Under the pieces are notes generated by a model that saw only the letters and a list, made by a program, of their open reading frames with translations, was not told where the DNA came from and did no database searches. A stretch of DNA of 43,702 nucleotides, filler included, from Jimgerdemannia flammicorona (taxonomy: Eukaryota): the NCBI GenBank assembly GCA_003990765.1. It is 2 parts of 2 records of this genome, joined end to end, with 100 filler letters (N's around TTAATTAATTAA, not from the genome) between each part and the next. Parts side by side here need not be neighbours in the genome. Positions count along the whole stretch, not along the records: positions 1 to 21,803 come from RBNJ01001392.1; 1 more part is not named here. The stretch is one strand, 5' to 3'. Numbering within the stretch: position 1 is the first letter of the stretch; each line of letters opens with the position of its first letter. The position numbers were made by a program, and so were the translations under genes. Positions 1 through 39,147 of the stretch are shown here, in pieces.

Positions 1-134
1 TGGTCGAGCTGCTGGACAATAGCTAGCCTAGGTTAATGGGGGGGCAGTGCTTGGTGGGTGGTGGGGGAGGGTTTTGGCCTATATAGTCTAGGTTCCCTTC
101 CAATAAAAATCCACGGGACATGAGTCCATAAAAC

Positions 135-161
<27 letters not shown>
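1..161 (+). mobile_element. 3' end and poly(A) tail of a SINE-like non-autonomous retroposon (copy A, cut by the window edge)
   Basis: 1-134 matches 1334-1467 base for base by eye, includes AATAAA (~101) and is followed by an A-tract to 161. Confidence 0.85.
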
Positions 162-165
<4 letters not shown>

Positions 166-293
166 GAGTATTTATACTAGTGAGGGGCTATCTGGGCTAT
201 GCTGAATATAGATGTAGCACTTAGTACCTTACTGAGTTGGAATGCAGTCACATAGTACAAGTGTGATCTGATATGTCAAGAGATTGTCTAACT

Positions 294-1480
294 AGCTCCT
301 TTCTCCACTACCTTACCAGTCACAAGGTTTGGTAGGCAACCTTCCAAGTCTCCTTTCCCCTATTATTACCCCCTCTACCTCAGGTTGGTTTGCTGTGCCT
401 GCAGAGGCATGGTGGGAGGAGGGCAATGGTGATGAGTTATCCCTTTATCGGTGTCGGATCGGTGCTTCCTCTACTTTTTCACGGATTCTGGTGCCTTCAG
501 CTGCATCTGAGGTGTACCCGTTTTGGTGTGGTGCCTTCTTCCTTTTGCCATCGCTAACAAGGTATTGTCTTGGTATATCTCAGGCTACATAGGGAGTCAG
601 CTGACCTTGGATATCAAGTGCTCAGTATAGGTTACCTGCAGGTCCTCGGTGCCTGTAGTGGGGCCCTCTGACTTTGGCGAGCTTCCTGGCAAGCATGGTT
701 CTGGTATAGGTGATTGCTTTTTGGGTGTGGTCGGGATGGGAGGAGAGATGGTCATTACAGATAGGTGGAAGGGTGATTATGGTGGACCAGTAGGGTGCCA
801 GGCTGGGGGCAGTCATCAGGGCTAGGGCAGGTGCTGCTTCGGTGGGGCCTTTTGATTGGTGTGGCATGGTTAGGTGGTAGGTGTCACTATTGGCTTCTTT
901 TGGTGGTCAGCGGGGTTGGGCCCCAGTCGTCAGGGGGGGTCAGGAGGCCTGAGGCTACCCATTTCAGGCATCTTGGCTGCACTCAACTGGAACCAAGAGC
1001 TGACATGACAACGTGATCGAGGCCCACAAGCTTGAGTAGTGGGGTATTGGGGGTTTCCTCTCACCTCATATGTAAGTCTTTTACTCATCTCAACTGAGAG
1101 AACCAGGCCCTACCCACCATATTGTGCTTTGATGAGAGTTTTTTATTTGCCTGTCATTCTCTTTGGGGTAGCAGGGGCTATTCTATTCGGCTTAGGCATG
1201 GCCTTGTACATACGTTGGGTTCTCAGGCATGCGCTTTTGGTCATTGGTATATAGTTGGGTTTTTCCTAATGGTAGGGAGAGCATGGTGCATAGAATGAGG
1301 TATGGGCCAACATAGGCCCTGCTGCGCCTGGCATGGTCGAGCTGCTGGACAATAGCTAGCCTAGGTTAATGGGGGGGCAGTGCTTGGTGGGTGGTGGGGG
1401 AGGGTTTTGGCCTATATAGTCTAGGTTCCCTTCCAATAAAAATCCACGGGACATGAGTCCATAAAACAAAAAAAAAAAAA
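294..1480 (+). mobile_element. Full-length ~1.19-kb non-coding poly(A) retroposon (SINE-like), copy B
   Basis: Starts AGCTCCTTTCTCCACTACC, the same 5' end as the copies at ~28519 (+) and 30493 (-). Ends AATAAA...ATAAAAC(A)n. Colinear with 28519-29724 throughout; no conserved long ORF. Confidence 0.85.
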
Positions 1481-2850
1481 GTATATTCAAACTATAGACA
1501 GAACTTTCCTATACCCTGATGATCACATTCTGCAAATACCCCAAGTTGAATATATTATGAAGGACATCTACAATATAATCTAGTTCAATAATGATAAAGC
1601 AGAAGATAATAATCTCTCTGATACTGATATGATCTCCAGCCAAGGATCTCTATTGGTCCTAATCACTCTATCAATATTGCTAATAAACTTATAATAGTTT
1701 ATAACTATCTATAAGACCTATTGGGATATCAACTACTGATATGAGTACTAATATATATTTATGTTCAATTACTTCAACTATAATGAAGAGACTGGAGAAT
1801 ATAATCTATATCTCTAGATAACTCTTAAAATTGAATTAACAACCCACCTTCTGAGTATGAACAAAATGAACAATAGCTACTAGTATACTATAACCCTACA
1901 ACTTATAGTACTGTAATTTATAGAAGATATACAAATAGTGAATCTGATGAAAGCAAAGACAATATACCTCTCCTTTGCTTACTAACTCTATATCTAGTAT
2001 ATGAGACAGATGATACTATTTTATAAGATAATGATATAATTCCAATATATTATTATCTAAGTAAATAGAGAGAAGTAATCCAAGAACTACTCTTTTTAGA
2101 TGACTACTTTATCAGAGATAATGTCATCAATAGTGATATTATTAAAGACTACTCAGATAGTATCTAAATCTATAGATAGCTTAGTAGTCATTAGTATAGT
2201 TATATTAGTCTTATATAATATAACTGTATATTAACTCAGCAGTCAGATAATCTCTTAATATATCAGTTTATACTTATACTATATAACTGTATTCTAACTT
2301 AGCAAAATACTAAGTACTATATTTATATTTAGTATAGTCCAGATAGTCTTCCATTAGTATAAATATCCTCTCTTCCAGACCTCAGAATCTCAGACTTGAA
2401 TAGACTCAAACAGATCTATATAAGAACTTCTAAATACTTTCCCACAATATTCCTTTATACAACTACTTCTAGTATAGCAATATTATAAACAGTGAATAAA
2501 CCTATTTAATAACCCACAAACTACTCTTAAATAAATCTAAACTCCATTAGATTCCACTCTTAATTACATTATAAAATTTCCTAATTAGGTATTGTCTGCA
2601 GTAATATATCAATTCAACTAAGCTGGTCTTAGTTTCTTGAACTTCCTGAAATATAAAAAATCCTAAACATTTAGAATAAGTCTGAAAAAGAACTTTGGTT
2701 GAGATATTAATCCAATCTTGAAATTAATAAGTATAAAGGATATACTCTATATGAAATTAATCTTGACCTTAAGAAAATGGTCTTCTAGAATATCCAGCAC
2801 TTCCAAAAAACTCTTTCAGAACTATATAATAGTACTTTTATAAGTATGTA
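1481..2850 (+). mobile_element. Heavily mutated repeat relic: acidic stop-riddled coding-like segment followed by a possible LTR-like segment; family unresolved
   Basis: CpG-free and TpA-rich. The + frames read as acidic protein-like text with stops (e.g. FLYPDDHILQIPQVEYIMKDIYNII*FNNDKAEDNNLSDTD). No diagnostic motif recognised. Confidence 0.3.
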
Positions 2851-5800
2851 ACTCTCTTATACTTTACTACCAAACTCATTCTCTTTCTATTTTTGAATAT
2901 AAACTATTAGTAGTCAGCTAATCTTATCTATATTATCAATACTCACTCAACTATAAGTTACTTATTATCAATATAACCTACTAACTATTCTCTCAAGTTA
3001 TCTCATCTTTATCTTTATCTACCATCATACTGTCTCACTCTTAGATAATATTTAACTATTACTTAGAAGTTATTAAGAATCTTATACTCTTATAACTAAT
3101 ATTGTTATAGACTCTTTTCTTTTATCTGACATTATAACAATCTTTATACTCCTATTTACTAAGTATTCTGATCTAAAGTTCAATATGATATTCCTTTTTA
3201 AGATCTACTATATCTCAGTACTTTAGGACTAGACTCTAGCCCAGTCTTATATCTTATTAATATCTACTAACTATCAGCTCACTAGTTATAAATTCTGTTC
3301 TATCTCTCATTAATACTCAATATTAGTACTAATATTGAAATCTATCACTAGCAAGCTATCCAATAGGAGCTTGTCTTACCTCTATATTACAGATCTCTAT
3401 TATATTTCTCTCTTATTACTTTATTAATATAAATCAATATAGTAAGTTCTCTCTACTATACTCCATCAGAATCTTCTATACTATAAGTATCTACTACCTC
3501 TTAGTTCAACTATTAATAATAGATCTCTAAAAGATTCTCTAAGAGAGAACCTTATCTTTCAGATCTTTTATATCAAAGACATCTACTCTTCACTCTATAA
3601 CTCAATAGCTCTCTTTATTTACTAAGCTCTAAGATAGTATAATCTTTTCAAGAAATCCACCAGAGCTACCAAGACTTCTCAATATATCTGACTCTATCTC
3701 TCTCTCCAAATTTAGTTCTTAGCTATTTTCAATAACCTCTTTATTACTCAAGCTAAAAAGTCTAAGTAATATATTAAATATTATAACTTCAGCAACTAGT
3801 AGATATTAAGGATTGATACTTATATATCTGATAAGAGAAATATAGTACTCCTCTCAACTCTAAAGAGTCTTCTGTCATTTTACTACCTTTTTTCCTATCA
3901 AACCCTAGATAAGCTGATCTATATATATACTAATAGAAATATATATATCCAGATACTATACTATCTCTCTAGTAGAGATAATAGTATCCACAATATCTCT
4001 ACCCACTAAACTATTTCTCAATACTATTATCTAGTGCTTCTAATAAATTGAATTGAATTGAATTAGACTCAAATTCAATTTAATTTGAAAACTTCAAATT
4101 AAATTAAATTAAGGTCTAATTCAATTTGAATTTTGATTTAAACCTAAATTTTTAAAATTCAATAACTTAACAAGAAAATGTCTAAATTTAATGATCTTTA
4201 TTATACTGGATTCATCTTATCAAGGTGAATTCAATAAGCTAAAATTTATCAAATTTGGATATATTTTTATCAAGTTATTATATTTCAAAGTTTAACTTTT
4301 AATTTTAAATTAAATCAGATCTTAATTCAATTTGAACTCAATTTAATTTAAACTCAATTCAAATTGAAAAATCCCCAATTTGATTCAATTTAAATTACCC
4401 CCAATTTAATTTGATTCAAATTGATTCAATTTATTTAAGAGTACTGCTATTATCTCATATTTATACTAGTTGAGCTTAGCTCTAGAGTACTCTTCATACT
4501 AGTTAATAGTAGTCTACAGCTCACTAATATTCTCAATAGAGCCAAGTCTCACTACTATATTATCTATAAAGGCCCCAATCTTTCAGACTATCTCTAAGAC
4601 TATAAGCTCTAATACTTTATAGTAAATTTAGTCTATTAAAATTCTAATGATAGTATATATAGAATAAGAGACAGCAGGTCTCTCTGAAAGATATCTCTCT
4701 TTAATAGAAATAAGATACCACAATATCTATTATATAAAATTACTGCCTGACTTTTCTCTAAAAGACTATTTATTAATAACTGAAATCAATGAAAGATACT
4801 AATTCTCTCTAATATCTTCTTTAGTCAGACTTACTATATCTGATCATAGGTCTTCTCTTGATTCAGAAAGATCAATCAGTCATTTAGTCTACTAGTTTTC
4901 ATTCTCTCAATTATACTATGAACCCAATCTATCTTATCTCTTATTAGTCTATTATTAATAAAGCTCCTCTACTTAACTCTCAATATCTATTAAGCCACCT
5001 TCTGCAACCTTGTAATAATTATCTTCATAACTAACTTCTTGTCTATATCTAGAAGTATAATTAGCCTCTAGTTCTTCTAATTCTCTCTCCTACTCTTATC
5101 TTTATAAAACAATATTACCAGACTAAGATCCTGACCCTCAACTTACTTCTCAGATAAAAGAACTAAGTTACATAATGCTATTATCTCTCCCAAGACCCTT
5201 GAAACTCTTACTATCTTCTTCTAAAAGTTCTAAGATAAGTTATTCTTACTGAGAGCTATATTTTGTTTTATAGCTAACAAGATATTCAAAATTTTCTTCT
5301 TCTTAACTGGCTGAGCCAAATCTTCAAAACTATCAATCTGTAGAGAGTACCAATCTTCCAGATAGTACTCAATTGTCCTCTTATTAGTATTACTCTCTTT
5401 CTCACTCTATAGATCTCTCTATCTATCTCTCAATAGACTCAGAATTCTCTATATTCTATTTATCAGGGTACTGTTCTTATTGAGCACTCTATTCTACTAC
5501 TACCTCACCCTCTTTATCTAAAGAAGCCTAGATACTTAATTGATCTCTCATCTTTCTCAAGCTTCTGCCATCTTAGCTAAGCAGCCATATTCTATATATA
5601 AGTCTCCTCCTCCTCTCTCAACACTCTCCTCAACTCCTCTATCTCTAGTTGAGCTCACCTCAGCCTCCAATCCTCTATATCCTCCTGTATTAATATCTCA
5701 GCCTATTCCAGCTATAATATCTCTATTCTATAAGAGGCCTACCTTATCTACTATCTCTGCTAAGCCTCTTAGAACTTACTAGTCTTACTCTAATATAATT

Positions 5801-8430
5801 TAGTAGCTTTTTTCAACTTTATCTAATAGATTCTAACTGAAGACCTCTCACTTTTTCAGTAAACAATCTTTCTCCCAATGTCCACCATTTATGTATTTTA
5901 TAATCTCTTCTTCTCTAATAAAGATATCAATATCTAGACCCATCTTTACTCCTCCAAAACTAGTCATACCCCAATAGTCCCCAATGATCAGATTATAGAC
6001 ACTACTCTATTTTCAAGGTCTTTTAGATATCTATCTCTCAGTAATTAGCTATCAGTATCTAATTAATTCTTATTCTAAATTCATTCACTCAATAAGTATA
6101 AACCCTCTAATCACTCTATACTATTCTGCTAGTATCCACTAATAAACTTAGATACTCTACTTTTTCTCAAATATCTATACTACTACTATAGTCTACAGTA
6201 TACCTCCCTTTATCAGTCTTGTTTGCTAACATATTTTACACTATATTGAAGTCTCTATCCAGTATATCTATATTAGCTTTAGTAAATACACTATACTTAT
6301 GAAGTCTATTCAGCTACTCTATATAATCACTTCTAACTACTAGACAATAATAAGAGTCTATCACTACTATGGTATTCCAATCTAGTCTATACTACTCTCT
6401 CTATATTAAGTGGTCTCTCTATCCTCTAACCTCATATAGTTCTCTCTTATCTTTCTGTACTAGAATCTCTACTCTATCTCTCCAAACTACTATACTACCT
6501 TATCTACTTATCTACTCTTATCTATTTAATTCTTTCTCTCAAAATATATTCTATAATAGAAAAATATCTATCTTCAAACTCTTCAGCTAAGCAAAAATAT
6601 TCTGATACTTTACTGAACCTCTCAGACTATTTATATTTAGTGAAAAAATATTAGTTATACTATTTATAAAAAAGTAATATTTTATAGCTATCCTATTTCC
6701 TTTATAGTTTTACACTTATCTTCTCTTCAGCTATGTCTAGATCATATTTTACAATAGCTTCTACCTCTTTAACTTCTTAGCATCCAATCTAGCTAATATC
6801 TCAGCTATCTTCTTGTTATTCTTAATCTCTATCTTCTCTTTATATTTCTTATACACTATCTGCTAGAGCTGCAATCTATACTACTACTTTTACTAAAAAA
6901 TAGTATATTCTCTAGTAATTACTACTAAGTCAGCCTCTCTTTCTACATCTACCTCATAGTCTTCATTCTCTAATAGTATAGCCAAAACTTTAGCTTTTAG
7001 CTTCCTTATTACTCTATCATCTCTCAATATCCTTATCTAGTACTTCTTACTGATAATATATAAGTCTATCTCTCTCAGCTTCTCTACAGCCAACTCATTT
7101 ATCATTACACTCATCCAATACATATCACCTATATATTTTTCATCTGAAGTCATAGACCTCCCCTCCTTTAGTAATATAGAATCAATACTAGTACTAGTAA
7201 ACTTATCCCACTCTTTCTCTGAAATATCATATAGCTTATTTTCCTCTACTCTGACCATCTATCCTCTCTTCACTATATCTGGTATTCTAAACTTAATTCT
7301 ATGTATGCTCCTTATCTTTATATTCTCTACAACTCTTCTTCTTTAAGTATTTGCCTATACTAGATATCTCTCCTTTTTCTTCCAGACTTTGAGCATATCA
7401 TCATTATAGAGCTGCTGACTCTTCACCTCCCTGCTTAATACTATATTCTCCTTTCTCTCTTCTACTCTACTTCTAGCCCAATTACTCACCATTACTTCTT
7501 CTGAGTCCTCCCCCTATCTCATCACTGTTCTCTCCTCCAAACTAGTCAGCAAGTCTCTCTGTCTCTTCCTCCCCTAAGTCTTCTTCTATATCATTTTATT
7601 TATATATATCCTCTTACTATTTATTACTTCCAAATATATTAATACTATATAAGTCTACCATACTATCATTCAATACTCAACTACTCTACTGAGTTTCTTC
7701 AGAGTCTCCAGTAAATCCTTCTCTTCCTTCTTACTCTTCTTAACTCTTATTATCTTACAGATAAATATATATCACATAAATACTACAGATCTGTCTCTAG
7801 TCTTCCTAATATCTTTCTTCTCTATAAGCTGAAGTCTAATATCAATATTATCTATTCTGAATATAGTACTCTTCTATATATTAAATCTTATATCTACTAT
7901 CTTCTTATACTCCTTTATCATCTCTTTAATCCTTCTTCTTATCTCAATAGTTATCATTATAGGTACTCCTTTTACAAAAAGCTATATAATTCTCAGATTT
8001 TATCTCAAATACTGAGCCATCAGCACTACTACTTTACTAATTAATAGCCCAGTCTTTATGGCCTCCATCAATAGCCTCTTCTTCTTAAAATATACCTCAA
8101 CTCCTCTAGTCTATACAGAAACTTCATTGAGGCTGCTCTAGTCAATTGGTTCATAATCAATCTCAAAACTATCTTAGTAGTTACTATAAGTCTCTAGAAA
8201 TATAAAGTAATAGTAATTCTGAGAATGATTTTTTGATTAATAGAGTTACTATTAATTCTATATATATCCTATCTACTCAGCCCTACTATTAGTCATTATA
8301 TCTGGATTTTTTTTCTAGATTTTCTATTATACTACCATCAGTAGTCACCTCTTAGCCCTCAGTAATAGCTTCCCAAGTCTCTATGTCTGCCCTACCAGAT
8401 AGTATCTCTCTAGCTCTTTTAGTACTCAAC
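2850..8430 (-). mobile_element. Decayed L1/Tx1-like LINE, copy 1 (ORF1 remnant plus APE endonuclease-RT ORF2), no 3' tail
   Basis: Mutated minus-strand motifs: SLNINSLRGS (EN start, ~6640), LDRDFN (=GGDFN, ~6250), SDHW (~5985), RDIFQRDLLSL (=RGVxQGDPLS, ~4680), GAFIDNI (=FADD, ~4565). Colinear with 8740-13600. Confidence 0.85.
4032..4446. mobile_element. 415-bp MITE, probably hAT superfamily, inserted in the RT region of LINE copy 1
   Basis: Perfect 8-bp TSD CTATTATC (4024-4031 and 4447-4454). Imperfect TIRs TAGTGCTTCTAATAAATTGAAT / CAGTACTCTTAAATAAATTGAAT. AATTG/CAATT subterminal repeats. The paralogous LINE has the empty site CTATCATC at 9608-9615. Confidence 0.85.
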
Positions 8431-11400
8431 TTTTTTTTTATTTTTTATTTTTATTTTTTCTATAGATATATAATCTCTTTATTAACTAATCTATAATAAA
8501 TATATAGTTCTCATACTATACTAGTAGCTCTAACCCAATCTACTCTACTTTACTCTATCCTAATATATTTTCTCTCCCCCACTCCTATTTTTCAAAACCA
8601 ACTATATTATTAACTATTATAATCTACTTACTACTCTTTTTATAAATTCTTTTCACCAGATACTGATGGTGACTACTCTGAGAGCTCCACTCTCTCTATC
8701 AGCTGAACAGTATATCTACTATTAGCTCCTCCTATCTCACTACCTTTCTCTTAAGACTATCTGCCTTTCATTCTCAAATACATATAACCAATAATCAGCT
8801 AACTCTATCCAAACTACCAATATATACTCAATAGTGAGCCACTTATTATCAATATACTCTATTAACTACTCTCTCAAGTCATCTCATCTACTCTCTTCTC
8901 TATTTACACATATATTAGACAGTTTTCAACCTTCTCTCAGAAGTCACTAAGTACTTTATACTTACTCAGTCAATGTTCAGATATCTGTACAATCTCCCTC
9001 TCTTGCCTTATATTAAGATAATTCTTACACTTAAAATTACTGCTTACTACTAAGTAATCTGACTTAAAGTTCAATATAAAATTTCTTCTCAAGACATATT
9101 ATCACACTATTTAGAACTTTAGAGGAAGCCACCACTATATCTCAGTATTCCAAGACCATACTCCAGCCTAGTCCCAAGTCTCACCAATACCTGCTGTCTA
9201 TCAGTTCAATGATTACAAATTCTGATCCACTCTTTAATAATAGATCCATACCTCTTCTATTTATTAAAGTCATCAGGATCTCTCAACTTATCTAACTTCT
9301 CCTTCTAGTCCAAATCCAGTTCTTAGTCATTCTTAGCAACCTCTTCACTATCTATACTAGAAAGTCTAAGTAGTATACCAGATATTAGAGCTTTAGCAAT
9401 CAGTAGATATTCAGAATTAATATCTACTCTATAAAAGTACTCTCTCTAATTCTGAAGAACATCTCTTCCTTCTACTATCTTTCTCTCACCAAACCCTGAG
9501 TAAGACATATCCATATACTGATAGAAATATATCCAGATATTACACTATCTCTCCCACAGGGACAATAGTTCTAACAATATCTCTATCTACCAAACTATCT
9601 CTCAGCACTATCATCTTATACTTATATCAGTTGAGCTTTACTTCAGAGTACTTCTCATATCATTCTACTGCTCTTCTCAGTATACTAATATCAGCAATCA
9701 AGCTGAGTCTAACTACTATGTCATCTACAAAGACTTCAACCTTCCAGACCACTCCTAGTATTAGAAGCCCTGATATCTTATAGTAAATTCTATTTGTTAA
9801 TAACTTTAATAATAAAGTATATAAGATAGAAATAGTGGGTCTCTCTGTAGAACTCTCCTCTCTAATAAAAATATAGTACTATAATAGTCATTATATAGAA
9901 TCATTGCTCTGCTGCCCTCTAATAGACTAATTATCAATATCTGAAATCAGTAAGAGATATCAATTTTCTTTAATACTATCTTTAGCTAAACTTACCAAAT
10001 TTGATCATATGTAGGTCTTCTTCTAATTCAGGAAGACCAATCTCCTATTCAGTCTATTAACTCTTGTCTCTTCAATCAAACTATATATTTATACTATTCT
10101 ATCTCAAATTAGTCTACTCTCAATAAAGCTCTAATACTTATCTCCTAATATTTATTAAACTACCTTCTATAGTCTTATAATAATCACTTTAGTGACTAAC
10201 TTTCTATCTATATCTAGAAGTATAATTGGTCTCTAATTCTTTCAATTCTCTCTCTTATTTTTGTCCTTATATAGCAGTACTATTAGACCAAGGTTCTGCC
10301 CCCTGACCTATTCTCCAGATATGAGAACAAAGTTACAAAGTACTATTATCTCTCTCAATATCTCTAGAACTCTCACTATCTTCTTCCAAAAGTCCCAGAG
10401 CAGGCCATCCTTATCAAGAGCTATTCTAATTTCATAGCTAATAAAATACTCAAGATTTCATTCTCCTAGACTGGCAGAATCAGATCCTTAAGATCATCAA
10501 TCTGTAGAGGGTACTAATTCTCCAAAGAGTGCCCAATGGTCTTCTCATCTATACTATCTTTCTCCTTACTCTATAGATCTCCTTACTAACTCTTCAAAGA
10601 ATCCAAGATCTACTATATTCTATTTACCAGAATACTCTCTTCATCTAATACTCTATCTCACTACTGTCTTATCTGAAGAAGTCTAGTCAGATACTTAGTG
10701 GGCCTCTTGCCTTTCTTAAGCCTCTATCACTATAGTCAAGCTGCCATACCCTATATCTAAGTCTCCTTCTCCTCCCTCAATATTCTCTTCAACTCCTCTA
10801 CCTCTATCTGAACTTATTTCAGTCTCTAATCCTCTATAGCCTCCTGGCTTAATAAATCAGCCCATTCTAGCTATAACCTTTCCAACTGATAAGAAGCCTA
10901 TCTCACTCTCTGTCTCTGTTGTATTCCTTTAAACTTATCAGTCTTACTCAAATATAACTTAGCAGTCTTCTTCAACTTTATCTAGCAGGCCCCTACAGAG
11001 GACCTCTTATAGTTTCATAGATAATCTTTGACCCAATGTCCTCCAATTAAGCCTCTTATAACCCCATCTCTGCTAGTAAGAAAAAAATTAAAATACTAAT
11101 ATCCAGACTTATCTCCACTTCTCTCAAACTGACTATATCTTAATAGCTCCCAATGATCTGACTATGAGTACCACTTAACCTTTAAATCTATCTAGATATC
11201 TATCTCCTAGCAGTCAGTAGTTAGCATTCAGTCAATTCTCATCTCAAGTTTATTTATCTAATGAGTATAAATCCTCCTATTCTCCTATATTATTCTGTCA
11301 GTATCTATCAAAGAACTTAGATACTCTACTTTCTCTCAGATATCTAAACTATCACTATAGCTCTCAGCACTTCTCTCTCTATCAGTCTTATTCAACAGTA

Positions 11401-13800
11401 TATTCTGTACTATGTTAAAATTTCCAACAAGTATATATGTATATCTATACCAGCCTCAATAAGTGTACCATACTTATGAAGTCTTTTATCTATACCACTC
11501 AGTCATCTCTAACTACTGAGTAATAGTAGAGCCAACTCTCATCCAGGCCTCTATCACTCTCTCTAAATCAAGCAGTCTTTTCAACCCCTGATCTCACAAA
11601 GATCTCCTTTATCTTTCTATATCAGAATTCTCACCTTACTCTTTCAAACTGCTGTACTACTCTATTATTTTACCTATTTTTTTCTATTTAAGTCTCTTTC
11701 ACAGTATATTCTATAACAGAAAAAGATCTGCTTCCAATTCTCTCAACTAAGTAAAAATGTTTTGATACTCTACAGAACTCCTCAGACTATTTATATTTAG
11801 TAAAAAAATATTAGTTATATTGTTTATAATAAAATAATATAATATTGTATTTCTAATTTTCTCACAGTTTCATATTCATCTCCTTCTAAGCCAAGTCTAG
11901 ACCATACTCTACAATAGTTTTCTCCTTCTCAATCTTTCTAGCCTTTAATATAGCTAGTATCTCAGCTATTATTTTATTATTCTTAGTCTCTATCTTCTTT
12001 TTATACTATATATATATATATCTCTTATTAAAGCTACAATCTATACTTCTACTTCTACTAGAAGGCAGTATATTCTCCAGTAGTCACTACTAATTCAGCT
12101 TCTCTTATCTTATCAATCTCATAACATTTCTTCTTTAAATATATAGTCAATATCTCTATAAACTTTTTTACCACTCTATCACTCTACAAAACTCTCACTC
12201 AGTACTCCTTACTGATAATCCTCAAGTCTACTTTTCTCAGCTCTTCTATAGCCAAAATATTCATTATTGTACTTATTCAATATAAGTCACTGATATTCTT
12301 TTCAATAAGAGTCACAGAACTCCTCTCTCTCAATATTGTAACATTAGTACCAGTACTTATAGTCTCATTTTATACCCCTTCTTGAATATCCTGTAGCTTA
12401 TTCTTCTCAACTCTAACTATCTGCCCTCTCTTCACTATATCAGATACTTCAAACTGGACTCTATATATACTTCTCATCTCTATATCCTCTCATCTTTTCT
12501 TTTCGGAGCTTTTGTTCTCACCTTATACTCCTTCTTCTCTCAGACCTCAAGCACTCTATCATTATAGAGCTGCTAACTTCTTGTATTCTCATTCTTCACC
12601 ATACTTATAATCTTCTCCTCTACTCTATCTCTAGTCTAATTACTAGTCTTCACCTCATCTGAACTCCCTCTAGTCCCAGTTACCAGCCTCTCCTTTATGC
12701 TCTCTAATAGGTCCCTCTGCCTCTTTCTTTTCTGAGTCTTCTTCTACATTATTTTGTCTATATAAATTCTCTTTTTATTCACTACTTCTAAGTATATTGA
12801 TATCTCATAAGCTCTCTATACTATCACTTTATATTCTATCACTCCACTGAGCTCTTTCAGAGTCTCTAGCAGATCTTTCTCCTCTTTCTTGCTCTCTTTT
12901 ACTCTTGTCATCTTATAAATAAAAATACTCTACATCAATATTGAAGGCCAGTCCTGAGTCTTCTCAGTAGTCTCTCTCTTAATAAGTCAGAGCCAGATAT
13001 TTATATCTTTAGTCCTAAATGAGATCTCCTCTTAGATCTGAAATTCAATATCTACTATATTACTATATTTTGCTATAACCTCTACTACCCTCTTTCTTAT
13101 TTCAACTACTATCACAATAGGCATCTTTTACTAGAAGCTGAACTATCCTTAAGTTCTATCTCAAGTACTATACTATTAGTACTATTATTTTTCCAATTAC
13201 TAACTCAGTCTTTAAGATCTTCTCTAGTAGCTCTGTCTTCTCAAAACCCATCTCAACTCTCTCCAGCCCCTACAAGAACTTCACCAAAGCTATGTCTACC
13301 ATCTGGTTCACAATTAAGTCCAGACTATCTTGGTCATTACTACTAGCTCTAGAAGTATAAAGTAATAGTAAATTTGGAAATTGACTTCTTAAGTAATGAG
13401 ACTACTACTAGCTCTATTATATCATCTATCAGATCACTCTTCCTAGCTGCTCAACTCTATTATCAGCAGTTATATCTGAATTTTTTTTCAAAGCTCTCAT
13501 CATATTACTATCAGCAGTTATACTCCTGTCTTCAGCAACTGCTTCACCAGCCTCTATGTCCACTCTATTAGGTACTGACCCTCCAGTCCTCTTAGTGTTT
13601 ATCTTTTCTCTTTCTCTAGACTTGCTATTCTGAGTACCTCTAGACTAACTCCCAGCCTTTACTCTGTTAGCAAATTTTATTGATCTCTACTCTTCACTAC
13701 TTATACTTAATAGCTAACTCTCACCAGGTCTGCCTTATCTACTCTCACTACTAAAAAACTCTATCTCTATACTGTAACCCCTTCTGACATATTGCTACCC
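8431..13800 (-). mobile_element. Decayed near-full-length L1/Tx1-like LINE, copy 2, with poly(A) tail
   Basis: T-rich tail at 8431-8459. Motifs: VGNFN (=GDFN, ~11420), RYLDRF (~11195), SDHW (~11155), ALDKDGLLWDFWKK (=APGxDGLPxEF, ~10400), RPIILLDIDRKLVTKVI (~10210), RRVLQRDPL (~9845), VFVDDI (=FADD, ~9725), and a C-terminal CCHC-like remnant (~8970). The 5' boundary is approximate. Confidence 0.9.
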
Positions 13801-13957
13801 AAAGGTCTCAGATCTATCCAACCTAGTATACTTGTCAGAATGCTTAAGTATTATTATATTGCTAGTATCTTTTCTTTAAAAACTATACAAAAAGTATTGA
13901 AAGGTATTTGTATAATGTGAATTGTACTGAAAAAAGGTGTCAACTTCTCCTTCTCCC

Positions 13958-15461
13958 CTAACTGACCACCTTGAGTACCTCCAGACCAACTACCAGCCTT
14001 TGTCTTCTCTGTGAAACTCATCTGACCCAATCTTCTACTGACCAATCTCTACTAATGACTCTCTCCAATTTCTCTCTGACCATCAGTATCTCCAAAGAAT
14101 CCCATCTCCATACCATACCTCCTTCCCACATACTGCCATCTGAATGCCCCAGGTCCACCAGACCTAACATATCTATCAGATCTTCCATTTGCTGATATAT
14201 CAATAGAACTTTTCTTCAAAAACTGCATAAAAGTGAGTTGTGAAGTTTGGTGTAATGTGAATGATAGCAGAGAAAGGTTGGTGTAGAATATATCTTCTTG
14301 ATGTAATTGCTATGTAGTTATGCACTGAAGTCTTTGTATAGAAGTTTTCTCTTTTTAGTAATTTACCTGTCCACTCTGAACCTTTTACTGTTTATGTACC
14401 TCCTACCTATATTAAACTCAACCAGGTCCCGACACCCATTCACGACAACCGCCAAGAACCTCTCGTCCACCTCTGTATCATTACTTATGCTAAGGTTTTC
14501 CAAGGCGACCCACGCCCCCATATCCACGATGCCCGCGCCCGTCACTCGTTTCAGCGGATCTTCCACGACAAGCTTGCGCAGGTTCGGCAACCTTGCTGCA
14601 CAACGAGCAAGCTACCGATTCGACACACCAGTGGGGGCGCCTACATGCAGCTTCTCGAGGCTCAGGTAGGCGTCGACAAGGCGGCAGAGCGACTCCTCGG
14701 TGACGTTTGTGGGGATCTCCTTAAATTCCACAAGGTTAAGCGAGACGAGGTTCGGGCATTGGTCGATAAGGATATAAACGGGGCTGTCCGACACACAATT
14801 GCTGCAGTAGGAGATGTGGAGCCGGCGGAGACGCGAGCCGAGCGCTTGGATGGCCTGCGAGACGGTATCAGCGTCGACGTAGGGAAGGTAACCTAGTTTG
14901 ACTTTGCGGAGGTGGGAGGGGGAGGGGGACGGCGAAGTAAATGCGTTGAGAGGCTTCGGGAGTCACGAGGCCGTGGATTTTGAAGGCATCTAGGCCGGTC
15001 CATATGAGGTTGATTATTTCGAAAAAGGTAATGGTGCACGCAGAGTGCTGGAGCAATGTGGAAATAAAGACGATTAGATCGACGAGCTCCTCGGTGAACA
15101 TTACCGTCGGTTTCTGAGGTAGCAGCTGGATGATCTGTACCATCGCACTGAGGCTGGTTTTCTCGCATAGGTTGTATGTGGCGATGTAGATGGACTTGAC
15201 GAGACGGATGCGTTGGACGGAGACTGGAGGTATATGTCGAGGTTTGGTTCGCTCAGAGCCAAGGTGATGTGTTTATAATTTTCTCGCTTGTCGGTATAAC
15301 ATTTAACAAAAGACCAGATTAACGGCAGGGCGGCATGACGCCATTCGCGAGCAGTTGAACAGGGAGGTGCGGCGAAAATGGTGGTCGAAGACATCATTGT
15401 CATTCACTTGTAGAAAAGAGAGGATATGATTCAGGATCTCTGGGATGGTTGGGAAGGGCAT
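13958..15461 (-). pseudogene. F-box/LRR (RNI-like) protein pseudogene
   Basis: ATG at 15461 gives MPFPTIPEILNHILSFLQ...RTSLFNCS, then frameshifts to REWRHAALPLIW (F-box pattern). LRR-type segments CPNLVSLNL, LPNLRKLVV and LENLSISNDTEVDERFLAVVVNGCRDL follow. There are several frameshifts and stops. A GT-AG intron at 14366-14223 joins the last exon in frame. Confidence 0.75.
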
Positions 15462-16176
15462 AGTGTTATTTGTGTTATGGTGATACGGCCTTGGGTGACG
15501 TCATACTAAGTACGGTGGCCTGTAGATTTCACAACGTCCGTTAGCCTGTTAACGTCCACTCTCGGTGTCCATTGTGTCTATCCCTGGACGCCTTCGGTTA
15601 CAAACCGTCTAGGCTTTGTGTGATCACCATTATATAAATAAATGAAACGAAAACTTGAGTAGAAAATGCGATCATTCTATGAGGAACCCATCACTCCGCT
15701 GTTTCCCTTTATCGTCAAGCCCTACCCAAAATCGGACCAAACATTTCCATTTTCCACAAAATATGCAAGCGGCGTTTTTAACGACCGGGAGTCCGTTGTC
15801 CAAATATTAAACAGCAAAGTGGCTGCTTCTTTTGCATAGCCAGAATTCATGTATATATACCGCGTTCCCGTTTGGTGTGACTGTCCATACTTTGTTGGTC
15901 GGAAGTAATTATATAATGCGCACAAAGATTTAAACGACAAACCTTGAACGAGGCCGAAAAAGGCAATTCAAGAATTCGGAAACAGGATCATCGAGTTCGG
16001 AGGAGGCGATGTGAACAAGACACGGCTGCAACTGTCATTCAATTTCGCTTTGTATTAATCGAATGTACGGCTTGATAGATTTTCATCTCTTATTGAGACT
16101 ATATTCACGGAAAATCATAGACCACTCCTACAAAAAGCCCCCGCTCATTACCGACTCGTCCACTATACTGCACTGC

Positions 16177-16671
16177 TTATGTTTTCCCTTCCATGCTCGT
16201 GCCCCTCGCTTGATTTATTTCCATACGGCCCCCCCTCAACAATCTAGCTGGCCTATTACCTTTACCCAGAGGTAATATTTTTTCTCCCTGATAGCTCCCC
16301 CCCCCTTTTTTCTCTTGTTCCCGCCTCTCGTGCTCGTATTTCTCTCCAGTCTCCTTCAGTACCTCTCCCTCATCTTCACAAAGCTCGCTGGGTCCATATA
16401 CCTTCATTACAGCCTCTCTCCTTTCTATCTTGGTTCCGTGGTAGGCTCAAAGTAAACCTGTGCTGAAGTCGCTCTAGTTAGGAGAGCTCAGAAACTCGCC
16501 GCCGAATTCGGACATAGCGTCCATAGGGAGGATGGGCACCAGGAGGTTCGGCAGGGGAGTTGCCCAAGGGCTTAGGGTTGAAGTATTGCCAAGGGAGTGG
16601 CTGGCCTGGACGAGCGCCAAGCCAAGAAGAGAGAGGACGGCGAGCATAATGAAATTGGGGTAGGGGATCAT
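16177..16671 (-). pseudogene. Possible small secreted protein pseudogene, or an unresolved spliced gene
   Basis: Signal-peptide-like N-terminus MLAVLSLLGLALVQA. ORFs 16474-16671 and 16177-16407 are in the same frame, separated by a TAG and a TGA. Confidence 0.3.
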
Positions 16672-17820
16672 TGTAGGTAGGGGCTAATGTGGTAAGTGGC
16701 GGAGTGGTGGGATCAGGGCTTTTGGCGGTGGCTGGGAGTGTTATTGGTCAGAGATTGTGAGATATTCGATAGTTGTTAATATATGGCTTATGACATAACA
16801 GAATCCTGGACACATCAGATATCCCAGATCGGTTTTGACCCCAACTCACTTGTCTAAGATTACGGTCGTTTTATCGATTAAATCTTGTCGCTGCCCTTCC
16901 GAAACTTTTGACGGCGCTGTTTTTAGCTCGGTGATGTGGTCGCCGATCCGGTGATTTCCTGCACGCTGCCCCTTGAAAACAAAAGCAACTTGCTATCAAA
17001 AAAAAAAAAAAAAAAAAAAAAGGTGGCCACTGCTGTTTCCAAAACAACCTTGATCCGTCTTAGGACAGGTTAGGCAGATGGCGCAGTTGCATCGTCGTGC
17101 GCTTGCAACACGGGGCGCATTGGGCCGACGCAAGAGCCTGTGTGCTTTGTGCGGCAAGACATAGGCCGAGTGTGCCGATTCAGTATTCAGAATTCGGATC
17201 CTCTGGATCGGTGGATCGGAAATAGCATCCAATGTTTTTTGGATGGTCGGCGCCGGGAGCGATCCGAGATGTGTCGCTTATCATGCGATAACCAGAAGAG
17301 ATGGCCCAAATCAAATGATGGATGATACCATCATGAGCTGGCCTTTGGGACTGCGACACTGCGACACGCATAAATATTGGCGAGGATCCGTCTGACCGTA
17401 TGCATGACGATTTTCGTCATCATCATGAGGGCACGGACAACCCAAATGCAAAAGATGGCGGAAAAAGGCAATTTGACGATGTTTTTATTAAGCCCACCCA
17501 TTCCTTTTTCTTCGTGCCTCGCGACATTTTGATGCACTTTCTCTCCCATATTCAATCGCCGTTTGGAAAAATAATAAGGAAATCCCCCCCCGTGTGGTCT
17601 TAGAAGCTAAACGCATAGTACGTTGACCACCGAGGGAGCGAGGATCTCAACCGTCAGTGCTATCCAAGTTTTCCTCCCTAGGGGCTCCCTTTAGTCTTGC
17701 AGCTCAATAATGCCTTGCACATACGTCAGCACCCAGTCCACCCAGTGTGAGCATCAATACATCCAGACACGTAGGAAACACCCCTCAACAACAGGCCGTC
17801 CTAAGGAAACACCAAAAGTG

Positions 17821-17828
17821 TATATAAG
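17821..17828 (+). promoter_or_regulatory. Candidate TATA box of the large disordered-protein gene
   Basis: TATATAAG about 100 bp upstream of the predicted ATG at 17923. Confidence 0.3.
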
Positions 17829-17922
17829 TTCCCGTCGAGGCCATCCTCCTAACTCTACCTCAGCCCACAATCAAAATAATACCATCCCACCATCGTCCTA
17901 CTCTCTCACAAGCAAGAAAAAC

Positions 17923-20900
17923 ATGAGTAGCCCAGACCGCAGAAGCAACCAACGCCGTGACAGCAGGTATTGTTCGGACCCGATGAACCCTTGCTAGCTT
18001 CAGCTGCTAGCTCGCACTCGCAGTAATATCAAACAAACTCTGCTCTCGCACCAGCGGACAATCATGCCCTTCTTATCCCAAGTGTAGGACTTGCGCGGCC
18101 TTTCGGAATATAACCTTGGCCATGCTCTCACCCACCCGTCACCCTTTTACTCCTTCTCAAAGGTCAAGTAGCCAAGCTAACTCCCGCTCCAGCCCGGAAG
18201 AACGTTCCAGCCCCCACACCGACGACCATCCTCGACGTCACCGCCCCTACGACCTCAATAGAAGTTTGTCCAGCGGTAGGACCTACGAGTGGCGCGCCGA
18301 CAACCATGGCCACCAGAGCACGCGCCATCATCGCGAGCATCAAGGCCGGCCACCACTTCGTATGTACGATAGCTACCGCCCCAATTACGAATGTCGAGTG
18401 AGCAGGCAGAGCGAAACAACACGTTCAGGGCTCCCCATCCGGTCCCTACAACAGTCCATTTCTAGCCCTCCTCCTTCCAATCAGTCGCGTCCAAACTCCA
18501 CCCATGCGAATTACTCTCGTCCTATATCGCCATCAAATATCACCGTCGGGCACCGCCGTTCTTCCAGCTATTTCAGCAGCAACTTCTCCCCTCCTCCACG
18601 TACGGCACCCTATCTTGATTTTCAGACATTCCCGTCCCCACCCACTCGCTTCGATTACCAGACTTACCGTCCGACATCATCCTCTTCCGTCCACACACTT
18701 CGCTCCTCTATCCAATCCCCACCACCCTGCCGCGGATCCCCCACCCAAGACACGGTCGAACTCCAACGCCGCATCGAGCGCACTAACCGCGATGGCCGTC
18801 TGGACCGTTATGTCCCGGAATACGCGGTCGTAAAGAGTATCGCCCCGCCCCCGCTAGCATCTCCGCAACCCGTCTACCCCCAATATGTCGTCCCATACGG
18901 CTATCCCGGATGCGGGTGGGTGTATGCGCCTCAAGCTGTACCAATCCAAGATGGGAAGCATGATCCAGATCTACTGATAAATAAACACGGTAGGGTTGTT
19001 ATGGACAGCTACAGACCTGAGTATACTTTGAACAGTTTGAGAGATTCGGAGTCGTGCGGGGAGTCCAGCAGTGCCGGCGGTGGCTCGGGTGGGAGAGACG
19101 CGAACATCGAGACGAAGCGGAGAGAGAATGTTGGTGATAGTCAGGGACGCGCACATCTACAGGCAGGGAATGAGGGTCGAGCCAAGCAGAAGCAGGGGCA
19201 TACTAAGGATGTCGCTGATGATGCCGAGCCCGCTGAATCAAATAACTCGGAGGGGAGGACAAGCCCACGACAATCTCAAGGCCCAACAACTTCTACCATC
19301 GCGAGGACTGGATCGGACCGGGATCTTCCAGAGCAGTCGAGCAACGGCTCAAAGCGTCGCTCCTCGTTGCAATCACAGCCTTCGCCGACTTATGGGCAAG
19401 ACCAACCTCAAACAGTCAGCGAGCAAGCCCAAGCACAACTCCCCAAACTTTGCAACGGCAAGCAGCGTGTGAACGACGCCCAACCGTCTTCGCGCATGCA
19501 GGGACAATCCCCCAGGTCCAACAATAGCAAGGGGTACGCCGACGACAACATCGCCTTCCAGCCATCCTCGCTTCGCATTCATCCACCGTTGCGCAACGTT
19601 GATCCTATGCCGCAGCCCATGATCAATGACATCGCCAACCCATCCACTTCTTTTAGCCTGGGACGCGTACAGAGACCTCATCGTCGCTCGCCACCGTCGG
19701 TCGTTGTAGCCAGCCTGTCGGGAGCCCCAAATATAGACGTTCCGGAAAGACGTGCCATGGAGCCTCCACTTCGCTCGACCACCTCCGACGACGAAGACGA
19801 TCATGTGCCTCTCGCGCGCTGGCGCGACATTGTCGTCAATATTAATGCCGTCATGGAACAAGTCACGACACAGGCGACTGGTCTTGGAGATGAGCATCCG
19901 CGTGGCCGTGACGCTGAAGCTGTGAGCGATGACGATGCGCCATCGTCGTCTGGTGGCGAAAGCACCACAGATACCCTCGTGGAGCCGGTGGGCGCGGTCG
20001 AATTCGGCGGTAAGGTTCGGTATGGGGATGCCAAAGTCGGTAATGCGTGCGGGACGGCGGGTGAAAAATTGGGGGCTTCTGATGTCTTCCCGTGTTTTAA
20101 AGTGGAGAAGCTTGAGATCGATCCCTCCAATGTCGGTAACGTTGTGCTACTTCACGGGGTTGTCGGTGCATCTAATGGCGGTGATATTGTGCTAGAAGAT
20201 GCAAAAAACGGTGAAGACAAACGAAATTCCTCGCTAGATCAAGTTAACGTCGCGCAAGTCGAGACGGTCGGATTGTCTGGTGAGGCATCAAACGAAACTG
20301 ACGCCATGCAGCGGTGCAACCAGAAAAAACCAGTGTCTCTTGGACATTTGTGGTCCACATACATGGACGAATCGTCCGCATCTTCCGATGACACTGACGC
20401 CAGCTCCTCATCTTCGGGATCTCTCACCGTTCAGAGATGCAGCACTCACCACGAGTCCTCTTCATCCTACCATCACCCCGCCGGGTATACGAGTGCCACT
20501 CACCCCACCAAGAGCAACCGCAGGCCTGGAAGAGTCACGCGCAATTTGCTGGAGGACAGTAAGGGCTTTGACACGGACCCGCTCGACCTTCCGCCCGACC
20601 AGCACAAGCAATTTACCGATTACGCACACGTACAGCCGTCGGGGTCTTCTACCGGAGGCGCGAGCGCGACAGATACAGATAACAATCACCCTCCCGCCGG
20701 AAATGACGCCCACAACACCCATCGCCCTATCCCCAACAGCCCCGGGCTATCACGCCCTCATCTTGTCGGCCGGAGAAGCCCGCATTCCCTAACGTGGCAC
20801 CCGTCCGTGCAGGATAATCAACACAGATCGCGCCCACTCCGCCGGTCCCCAAGCTACGTCGTTCAGAGATCGCCGATCAGGTCTCCAAACTACACATCTC

Positions 20901-21692
20901 AAAGTTCTCAGACCAAGTCCCCTGGTCACACTTCCCGACGCCCGTCGACCAGGTTCACAAACCACTCCGACAGAAGCTCCCCTGCCAGGTACGTCGGCGA
21001 AACCACCCAAAACCAACCAGCCAAATCCCCAACTCGCGCCGTCCAAACCACGTCAACCAACCGGTGCATATCCTCTTCCAGCGTTGGCCCCAGGTCCGTC
21101 AATCGCCGCACCAGCTCTAGCGGAAGTCGAGGCTCGAGCAATTCGCGCGGCAGCTCCACATCCAGCCCCACACCCACCGAGGAGCAGGAACAAGATCGTC
21201 CGAACAGGTTCTCATTTTCCCACATCCCACCATTTTTTTCGTGTCGCAGGCGTTCCTCAAACTCACCCGCCGAAATCCAACCGCCCTCGTCGGCGCCGGT
21301 CAACGACGATCAAACTCCAGAGAAGCGTCGTAAGGTTGGGTCGCAGAGTGAGGAGGACAGAGTGGCCGTCGGTGGGAGTCAGCGCGAGGCGGATGATAGG
21401 AGGAGCGGCATGTTTGGAGGGAAGTGGCTTTCGGTAAGTATCTACGCCGGTTGATGAGTGTTTCTTTAATTCTTCATCTGACTTTGTCTGGTGCTTGGCT
21501 GAATGGTTTCATACCTGAAATCCCCAGTATCGTTCCCAGATCAACCACAGTGGTTCACCTACACGCACTTCGATGTCACCCAGGCGGATGACGCCGCGGG
21601 GTACGCGACAGGTGACGGTCGAGAAATTGGAATGGGGGGATCGACATGTGATGACGTTTCGCTACAACTCCGAGGAGGATCAGGAGGAGTAG
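17923..21692 (+). CDS. Hypothetical Ser/Pro/Arg-rich, intrinsically disordered protein, ~1159 aa; predicted exons 17923-17966, 18163-21433, 21528-21692
   Basis: 3.3-kb open frame. ATG in AAAACATG context. Donor AG/GTATTG (17967) and acceptor TTCTCAAAG (18162) join in phase. Donor GTAAGT (21434) and acceptor TCCCCAG (21527) give an in-frame last exon ending ...RYNSEEDQEE*. Confidence 0.75.
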
Positions 21693-21765
21693 ATAGGACG
21701 AAGGGTCGTGATAGGATCATGTATATCTTTTATGACGTACATTGCATAATACTTATCACATGATC

Positions 21766-21803
<38 letters not shown>

Positions 21804-21903
21804 NNNNNNNNNNNNNNNNNNNNNNNNNNNNNNNNNNNNNNNNNNNNTTAATTAATTAANNNNNNNNNNNNNNNNNNNNNNNNNNNNNNNNNNNNNNNNN
21901 NNN
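21804..21903. other. Assembly gap with artificial six-frame-stop linker
   Basis: N44-TTAATTAATTAA-N44, exactly 100 nt, following a poly(T) contig end. Confidence 0.95.
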
Positions 21904-22575
21904 GGGGTTGGCGTGGAATCTCGTTGCTTTTTTGAATTCATTCTTGAGCTCCTTCTTTGAGCCGGATGGGGAGCTCCTTCTGAGACATGGCGTTTTTTTT
22001 TTTTTTTAATGACCCAATCCTTTGTAAAAGCTGTTCCTGAAAACATATGTAGGACATCATTTTCATTAAAGAGTTACTAAAGTATATCAAATATTTGAGA
22101 GATGTTTATTCAATTTTTCAAAGCTAATTATTTAGTGGTATGAGCACAGATCGGGAGTATGGCATATCATCAAATGTTGTGAAATTTCCATGTTATTGAG
22201 ACTTCGCAACACAAAAACAACTGAACATTGCGCGACGTCCAACAAGCAAGGGATCATTGGGCAACGACAGTATGAATAACTACAAGGACGTGCGCATTGA
22301 CCATCAATAACTAATAGGAATCATTAGCCAGTCAGAAATCCTTGAGAATAATCCAGTATTATCCGACGACCGTGGTGCAAAATATTGGCTTCGTCATTCG
22401 GGATTGGCAACAAAGTGCGTGCGACACCTTTTATTTTCCAGAATAAGGAATAAGAATAATGATAGGCAAACGCCGCCATACTATCTGTACTCTCTGCAAA
22501 GGCAGCTTACAATGTGAATCCGGTACTATTAGAGAACAAATTTCTGCGATCGATCATAGTTATGTCATCAGATTT

Positions 22576-24054: not shown

Positions 24055-24439
24055 GGTTAAGTGATAATATAGAGAGAGGTTGACAAATTGCCAATGACAA
24101 TTTCCACGTGATTATCTGTTATGGTCGCACTGCAATGTGTCTCGTCAACAAGTAAAGGGTTATATGTTTTCATTCTAATCCCACTTGTCTATTGCAGGCT
24201 GTTTGTCTCTGTATGTATTTACAAAAGACTAACATGTTTAAACCAAGTAACTGCACGGCAGACATTGGACTTGCACAATTCAAACGCAATGAAGACAATT
24301 CTGCAATCTCCAAATGCACAGTTTCACAAAATCCACCATACCCAATATTATCGACAAACCATTCCCCTCCTTCTCTGCAACCTGAACCCATGTCCACTCC
24401 CATGCCACCAAGATATCGCATACGAGGCCAGACATTTAT

Positions 24440-24483
<44 letters not shown>

Positions 24484-24526
24484 CAACACGACTACTTCAA
24501 TTCCGGAACTGGTATATACACGAATT

Positions 24527-24666
24527 GTTAATCGCCAGACCGGCAAGGATGCGGTTTAGTCTTTTAGAGCGATATTTCGGGAACTGGTACGCTAATGCAA
24601 ACAGATCGCTCGCCACATCGTTAATCGCCAGACTGGCAAGGATGCGGTTTAATTTTTTAGAGCGAT
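24527..24666 (+). repeat. 47-bp direct repeat, two copies (24527-24573 and 24620-24666)
   Basis: GTTAATCGCCAGACYGGCAAGGATGCGGTTTARTYTTTTAGAGCGAT, with 3 mismatches. Confidence 0.85.
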
Positions 24667-24823
24667 GTGTTCAACCACACCTTTTTCTTTAAGGTAGATA
24701 AACCGACATCATCGACGAGCATTCCGCAGAGTATTTGTCTTCAAGACAAAAGGGGGCATATAAGAGTACGATCGAACGGGAGTGATACGTGTTCTCGTAC
24801 GTGGTGCCTTTTGCCTTCTAACA

Positions 24824-29681: not shown

Positions 29682-29727
<46 letters not shown>

Positions 29728-39110: not shown

Positions 39111-39147
<37 letters not shown>

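Follow-up and report, generated by a model that had tools for sequence, protein, structure and literature searches.

Repeat-induced point mutation (RIP) of Neurospora crassa is RID-dependent, takes place between fertilisation and meiosis, and strikes duplicated DNA of gene size but not single-copy DNA. In Neurospora RIP, the mutation rate of a cytosine depends on its 3′ neighbour only, and a methyltransferase flips the target base (10.1101/344036). CpA is the first target (PMC2621366, 10.1101/344036), and CpA-first RIP is described as the rule in Pezizomycotina (PMC4352252). In the MATE elements of Aspergillus nidulans, CpG is mutated before CpA (PMC2621366). In Tuber melanosporum, a CpG signature is found in 40% and a CpA signature in 25% of the transposable elements (TEs), and Tuber combines RID/Masc1-like and Masc2-type enzymes (PMC4352252) with high CG methylation (PMC7862722). 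In Pucciniomycotina (Microbotryum, Puccinia, Melampsora and Rhodotorula), TEs are hypermutated at TpCpG (PMC3318451), and in Microbotryum, Melampsora and Puccinia, CpG-only signatures accompany DNMT1 class IIA (PMC4352252). In a screen of 1,239 species published in 2025, RIP-like repeat signatures were confined to ascomycetes, in four classes with a shared CpA preference (PMC12543289). Here we describe a 43.7-kb stretch of DNA (the window), in which two blocks of retroelements carry C:G-to-T:A mutations with CpG as the first target. As in Neurospora RIP, the mutations are confined to repeats, the copies are mutated independently, and the relics are AT-rich and stop-filled with positive classical indices.

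The window is a mosaic, in which blocks of about 30% GC flank a gene island of 50% GC. Block 1 (positions 1481–14429, GC 0.311) contains only one CpG, at 12504, whereas 252.1 are expected from its base composition (Poisson P about 8e-108). Block 2 (27722–39281, GC 0.30) contains three CpGs, at 29240, 29877 and 36092, against 251.4 expected. Block 2 is the same phenomenon as block 1, and the two are to be counted together. The gene island (14430–27720, GC 0.50), which serves as an internal control, has 878 CpGs against 824.5 expected, an observed/expected (o/e) ratio of 1.07. The CpGs flanking block 1 are located at 1447 and 14430. At the latter border the number of CpGs per 200 bp rises from 0 to 15, and the mutated zone ends base-sharp at the gene DNA. 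An earlier note on this DNA had described a block of about 13 kb with almost no CG and rich in TA, and had not listed block 2. Its interval and its single CpG are exact to the base, and TpA reaches an o/e of 1.18 in block 1, compared with 0.72 for the gene island. The o/e of CT+AG is 1.6–1.8 in both blocks against 0.87 in the gene island, and the remaining cytosines are concentrated in CpT. The unconstrained non-TE DNA of the window has a GC content of 0.38–0.43 and a CpG o/e of 1.0–1.2. Since this DNA retains its CpG and its GC content, the blocks are away from the general mutational equilibrium of the genome. A similar arrangement is known from the AT-rich isochores of Leptosphaeria maculans, where gene islands and blocks of mutated TEs with about 30–36% GC meet at sharp borders (PMC4352252). 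In L. maculans, however, 90% of the C-to-T sites are CpA (PMC4352252), whereas here CpG leads and CpC matches CpA.

The blocks are built of retroelements, several of them in more than one copy. Family A is a non-coding 1.33-kb retroposon with a poly(A) end. Its copy A1 (1–1480, plus strand) is lightly decayed (GC 0.49, CpG o/e 0.26) and comprises the tail of one unit followed head-to-tail by a full unit, positions 1–147 being identical to 1334–1480. Three heavily decayed copies lie in block 2, namely A3 (28058–28511, minus strand, partial and inverted), A2 (28522–29702, plus strand) and A4 (29725–30493, minus strand, inverted). They include copies with 40–42% GC, against 49% in A1. The trio A3–A2–A4 at 28058–30493 has an inverted–direct–inverted arrangement, and its arms could pair as long hairpins. 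No Pfam domain was found in family A or in the region 1481–2900. In block 1, two copies of a family resembling long interspersed nuclear elements (LINEs) are arranged head-to-tail on the minus strand, with about 70% identity over about 4 kb. The heavily decayed copy B1 (2889–8434) has the reverse transcriptase motif FIDN at 4570 and a weak RVT_1 match (E 3e-4), and copy B2 (8770–13607) has FVDD at 9731. The full-length and heavily decayed Ty3/Gypsy element C (31466–37579, minus strand) has the Pfam domain order gag, dUTPase, protease, reverse transcriptase, RNase H, integrase and SH3. Its long terminal repeats (LTRs) at 31466–31931 and 37109–37579 are 85.8% identical, with zero CpG in both, and its decayed motifs are YLDN at 34529 and NSRA at 35543. 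The earlier note had quoted these four motifs and two 18-mers of retroposon copies; the motifs were all found on the minus strand, and the 18-mers at 447 and 28671. The dUTPase domain of Gypsy C is located between gag and protease at 35634–35864 (minus strand, Pfam E 5.7e-7); dUTPase-bearing Gypsy elements are known from Postia, Phanerochaete and Tuber (PMC2864245). Beyond block 2, the RNase H and integrase half of a second Ty3/Gypsy element, D (39282–43702, minus strand, GC 0.46), is cut by the window end. A protein search with a Gypsy integrase gave 17 matches with 28–35% identity, animal names among them, which are uninformative about the host, and an integrase fragment fell among mixed taxa in the ESM Atlas. 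A metagenome scan with the integrase of Gypsy D gave 11 loci with 25–44% identity, which are too distant for polarising mutations.

The repeat copies differ mostly by C:G-to-T:A transitions. Family A is the most readable case, as its copy A1 lies near the unmutated state. The numbers of transitions and transversions are 224 and 27 between A2 and A1 (78.7% identity), 158 and 10 between A4 and A1, 71 and 9 between A3 and A1, 151 and 17 in a further family A pair, and 56 and 9 between the LTRs of Gypsy C. The ratio is thus 6.2–15.8 in these five TE pairs, and it is 3.6 in the LINE pair (951 and 262). In the family A pairs and the LTR pair, the transversion divergence is 1.3–2.3%, against 12–20% for transitions. 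Over the 766 columns of a three-way alignment, A2 has 55 private C:G-to-T:A changes against 21 in the reverse direction, and A4 has 66 against 14. A control is available within the gene island, where two BTB-SPRY paralogs form a non-TE duplicate that is not hypermutated. The duplicated segments at 22061–24116 (minus strand, gene 22576–24111) and 25174–27287 (minus strand, gene 25742–27274) represent a 2-kb duplication, 3.2 kb apart and 84.5% identical (88% in the coding part). Between them, 215 transitions and 97 transversions were counted (ratio 2.2), without a consistent context effect. The duplicated non-coding flank has 76 and 51 (ratio 1.5) at a CpG o/e of 0.99–1.08. These values indicate a background ratio of about 1.5–2 without CpG loss in this genome. 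All six TE pairs show a higher ratio than the 215 to 97 of the control (p 4e-3 to 2e-11). The earlier proposal of a C-to-T mutator restricted to repeats agrees with the strong transition excess in the TE pairs and the sparing of the gene island, and the excess is not equal to that of non-repetitive DNA.

The target contexts were read from rates pooled over A2, A4, B1, B2 and the two LTRs of Gypsy C, the six copies with heavy decay. According to the 3′ base, the fraction of reconstructed cytosines now read as T is 94/170 (55%) at CpG, 335/968 (35%) at CpA, 372/1191 (31%) at CpC and 240/1649 (15%) at CpT, and the contexts are strongly heterogeneous (chi-square 241, p 5e-52). Neither the 5′ base (27–32% across the bases) nor, in the pooled copies, the second 3′ base influences the rate. 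CpG exceeds CpA with an odds ratio of 2.34 (p 5e-7), so that the CpA-first preference of Neurospora RIP is not seen. These results show that the C-to-T rate is set by the 3′ neighbour alone, in the order CpG > CpA ~ CpC >> CpT, with the strands equally hit. The similar rates at CpC and CpA and the sparing of CpT had no place in the earlier note. The pattern also differs from that of Pucciniomycotina, with which it shares a RIP-like C-to-T mutation of TEs centred on CpG and outside the classical CpA context. A 5′ T is not preferred here, TCG being mutated at 13/28 sites (46%) against 64–69% for the other NCG trinucleotides (ACG 11/16, CCG 15/22, GCG 9/14; pooled TCG 29/56, 52%), and a strong CpA and CpC part is added. 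The pattern is thus not the TpCpG one. The earlier suggestion that it is not the classical CpA pattern stands in part. CpG leads, but CpA is second at 35%, and the classical RIP indices are positive. TpA/ApT is 1.23 in block 1 and 1.15 in block 2, (CpA+TpG)/(ApC+GpT) is 0.90 in block 1, and the composite index is +0.33 and +0.14, respectively. In a scan of 1-kb windows, all windows with a positive composite index (TpA/ApT above (CpA+TpG)/(ApC+GpT)) have a CpG o/e of 0.05 or less, and the 6 of 6 windows with a CpG o/e of 0.2–0.5 have a negative one.

The less decayed elements show the order of the events. When 40 CpG sites of A1 are aligned with the decayed copies, 36 are lost (TG 10, CA 15, TA 11) and one is CG. 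A2 has kept 1 of 37 reconstructed CpGs; the rate per cytosine at CpG is estimated from this copy as about five times that at CpA, with small numbers. In A1, the private C-to-T changes in the three-way alignment are 5/10 at CpG, 3/47 at CpA, 5/96 at CpC and 4/80 at CpT. In Gypsy D, about half of the CpG is gone (CpG o/e 0.46) and CA+TG is raised (o/e 1.24), with a TpA o/e of 0.69, unchanged relative to 0.72 in the gene island. In its integrase reading of 351 residues, 6 of the 7 in-frame stops are TGA, which would be the product expected from CGA by C-to-T change at CpG. The order first proposed, CpG first and then other contexts, therefore holds. A1 and Gypsy D, with CpG loss, TG+CA gain and TGA stops, look like the products of plain decay of 5-methylcytosine (5mC) at CpG in silenced TEs, of the DNMT1/DNMT5 type seen in Basidiomycota, and they are the only elements with an excess at CpG only. 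The slight CpA excess of A1 (15/170 against 8/144 at CpT) fits either one graded process or two layered processes. For the blocks, plain CpG decay was rejected. CpA and CpC are mutated there at 31–35% against 15% at CpT, and decay at CpG cannot remove a third of the CpA and CpC cytosines with CpT at 15%, nor bring the GC content to 25–35%.

It might be considered that an AID/APOBEC-type deaminase edits the cDNA or RNA of retroelements during retrotransposition, and that the elements arrive already mutated. All affected sequences are indeed retroelements, and block 1 has a GC skew of −0.3 to −0.6. AID/APOBEC deaminases, however, read the 5′ neighbour, which is without effect here. On the LINE sense strand no strand asymmetry was found, C-to-T and G-to-A being 32% and 29% in B1 and 24% and 27% in B2. 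LTRs of one inserted element start identical, and those of Gypsy C now differ by 56 transitions, with C-to-T and G-to-A changes in both, which indicates divergence after integration. The skew is already present in the reconstructed two-copy state of the LINE-like family, whose sense strand has G over C at 3:1 (G 1269, C 427), and therefore it looks like a property of the family. According to these results, editing before integration is very improbable.

Another explanation is that the blocks consist of element families which are natively AT-rich and CpG-poor, without any hypermutation. The LINE-like family, of which the window holds no GC-rich copy, would allow it. Family A, on the other hand, has a 49%-GC copy and 40–42%-GC copies which differ by directional transitions, and G-to-A and C-to-T changes destroy catalytic motifs and reading frames. 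Two public runs that share one coded organism, X1 and X2, provide contigs in which further copies are represented. These were compared over 1501–21500, where the genes are covered by spliced contigs and the TE block in short patches from other copies. The run contigs carry C or G at sites with T or A in the window, and also the reverse. Forty differences were listed, the best supported ones, with 306 more beyond them. Of the 32 listed ones that fall in the TE part, 30 are transitions, and their contexts are CpA 14, CpC 10, CpT 4 and CpG 2; this small independent sample agrees with the spectrum of the copy alignments. At 4386–4387, the window has CA and the other copy TG. An RNA-type contig of X1 at 9464–9793 represents a third LINE-like copy, which differs from B2 at 24 of 330 bases; all 19 of the differences listed are transitions. 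X1 and X2 hold part of the gene island as well, and none of the holders listed is recorded as RNA. Native composition is contradicted for family A and Gypsy C, and as an explanation of the blocks we regard it as extremely improbable.

Thus, the blocks are probably graveyards of retroelements which were inactivated by a transposon-confined C:G-to-T:A hypermutation that is RIP in a broad sense. We consider RIP-like hypermutation layered on CpG-methylation decay to be the probable course, and prefer it to slow decay alone. Slow decay would proceed by dense methylation at CpG and weaker methylation at CpA and CpC in TE heterochromatin, followed by spontaneous deamination of 5mC, without homology sensing or a premeiotic step; older insertions would simply be further along. 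It fits the observation that CpG mutates faster than any other context and is the sole loss of the less decayed elements. A clock-like process hardly gives the branch of A4, with 66 C-to-T changes to 1 transversion against 18 to 5 in A1 (Fisher p 0.004), which is more than a clock alone accounts for. The low transversion divergence beside 12–20% transitions and the fall of the GC content by about 20 points also speak against it. In addition, the heavily hit copies are the clustered family A trio and the tandem LINEs, whereas the distant A1 is lightly hit, as repeat-triggered mutation would predict. As a complete account of the blocks, slow decay is possible but rather unlikely.

Several points weigh against the RIP-like explanation, and the first four of them also count in favour of slow decay. 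The branch of A2 (55 C-to-T changes to 11 transversions) is not richer in C-to-T than that of A1 (18 to 5, p 0.55). The poly(A) of A1 ends exactly at 1480 and abuts DNA that is already AT-rich, as in a younger insertion. No strand clustering of C-to-T against G-to-A changes was found in 10 copy comparisons (runs tests, z −1.00 to +1.39); tracts of one strand, as a single round of RIP leaves them, are missing. Some duplicates escape, as the BTB-SPRY paralogs retain 140 and 145 of 169 reconstructed CpGs. This sparing is weak evidence, since the flank with 11% transversions is older than the TE pairs and the duplication may predate the episode. The difference between CpA and CpC is not significant (odds ratio 1.17, p 0.10). 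The contexts were read on a two-copy state that restores C and G, so that a site mutated in the two copies alike goes unseen. A1 is the reference in three pairs, the LINE pair is about 69% identical with some columns possibly misaligned, and the numbers of CpG sites are small. Finally, the whole enzymatic step is a matter of inference from the sequence.

We infer an enzymatic step from the dependence of the rate on the 3′ neighbour alone, a feature shared with Neurospora RIP (10.1101/344036). An enzyme of the DNA cytosine-5-methyltransferase superfamily would mark or attack the cytosines. An activity of the CpG maintenance type (DNMT1/DNMT5-like) could account for the fast loss of all CpG, and the layer of CpA and CpC changes could be due to a RID/Masc1- or DIM-2-like activity. 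Deamination to thymine would then follow the modification of the cytosine. CpG is lost first, since early-stage elements show this loss alone, and the non-CpG layer then brings the GC content from about 50% to 25–35%. Stops and broken catalytic motifs (YLDD to YLDN, DSGA to NSRA, FADD to FVDD or FIDN) come after it. In Zymoseptoria, a DIM-2-linked C-to-T mutation of methylated repeats is reportedly found. In DIM-2-mediated RIP of Neurospora, a heterochromatin-targeted cytosine methyltransferase raises the C-to-T mutation of repeats (PMC13297926), similarly to the step proposed here. DIM-2, however, prefers CpT (PMC13297926), the very context that escapes in this DNA. In addition, DIM-2-mediated RIP mutates the linker of close direct repeats (10.1101/344036), whereas the linker between the BTB-SPRY paralogs has a CpG o/e of 1.22.

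The pattern is a CpG>CpA variant of RIP-like mutation with a target order of its own. Unlike Neurospora RIP, it follows CpG > CpA ~ CpC >> CpT, shows no strand-coherent tracts and spares a 2-kb gene duplicate. With the variant of the A. nidulans MATE elements and Tuber it shares CpG as the first and CpA as the second target, and with Tuber also a dUTPase-bearing Gypsy element (PMC2864245). The equality of CpC and CpA and the sparing of CpT are absent from the published descriptions of that variant, as far as their available parts go. In Tuber, the GC distribution of the TEs matches that of the rest of the genome (PMC4352252), whereas the window has two sharply separate modes, at 0.30 and 0.50. 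The closest proteins found here come from unannotated assemblies and reach only 41–42% identity, a poor fit to such a well-sampled genus. In a limited literature search of partly available texts, which is no proof of absence, no report of a spectrum with CpC equal to CpA and CpT protected was met. Likewise, no report of RIP-like hypermutation in Mucoromycota or Mortierella was found in a search covering mainly titles and the openings of abstracts. A more far-reaching possibility, which we hold as tentative, is a host outside Dikarya, of the Mucoromycota type, with a true repeat-directed mutator that attacks C before G, A and C and not before T. Its enzyme would belong to the DNMT1 superfamily and would be neither RID nor a Neurospora-like DIM-2. 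As to the host itself, a fungus of the Mucoromycota type seems somewhat more likely than an under-sampled ascomycete or another lineage, with each of the three below even odds.

The gene island contains an F-box/LRR-like gene, a spliced serine/proline-rich gene and the two BTB-SPRY paralogs. The tandem BTB-SPRY family is small and fast-evolving. Among 1.84 billion representative proteins searched exhaustively with HMMER, only 167 match at E ≤ 0.001, the best with 41% identity, and word-indexed protein searches gave 5 matches for one paralog and 1 match for the other with 32–42% identity. The two nearest ESM Atlas clusters are commonest in Mucoromycota (score 0.96), the single positive hint of taxonomy and a weak one, as only large clusters are searchable. 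The last open reading frame (ORF) of the F-box/LRR-like gene (14363–14611, minus strand) crosses 14430 and reaches its stop after 66 bases of CpG-free DNA. The TE block may have truncated the gene, or the mutation may have leaked into its 3′ end; by Pfam, no LRR signal past the border, which would be a sign of leakage, was detected. The serine/proline-rich ORF of 1147 codons (17565–21433, plus strand) is covered by spliced contigs of X1 and X2, whose GT..AG joints lie at 17964/18161 and 20985/21247. The identity to the window is about 99.5% in X1 (14 other letters in 2835) and about 95% in X2, with many in-frame indels in the latter. The host is a eukaryote, probably a fungus, with GT..AG introns of 88–261 nt, seen as joints in the run contigs, and with Ty3/Gypsy and LINE-like elements. 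Both runs contain a 626-base contig at 16048–16731, which matches the window exactly in X2 and differs at 4 positions in X1. This contig overlaps a minus-strand ORF of 69 codons with a signal-peptide-like start, which may be the gene of a small secreted protein. No informative Pfam family was obtained for the F-box/LRR-like gene, the serine/proline-rich gene or the small ORFs, and no rRNA, tRNA or Rfam family was found in the window. Two runs of 44 N each are located within the island at 21804–21847 and 21860–21903, with a spacing of 12 bases, and were taken as masked or unassembled sequence.

RIP-like mutation determines the retention of duplicated genes and the partitioning of genomes in fungi. 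The window represents a mosaic of textbook strength with a different target order, CpG followed by CpA and CpC with CpT spared, and it carries its own controls in the form of non-TE duplicates and two early-stage elements, A1 and Gypsy D. The repeats did undergo a C-to-T hypermutation that is confined to them and takes CpG first. As a genome defence it belongs to a known kind, and its order of targets is unusual. If the host is an ordinary ascomycete, one more specificity variant is added. If the host is a fungus of the Mucoromycota type, the known range of RIP-like defence widens, and a tractable case is provided for asking which methyltransferase family acts. Should the mutator outside Dikarya prove true, RIP-like defence, or an independent invention of it, would have existed before or outside the ascomycete radiation, against the result of the 1,239-species screen (PMC12543289).

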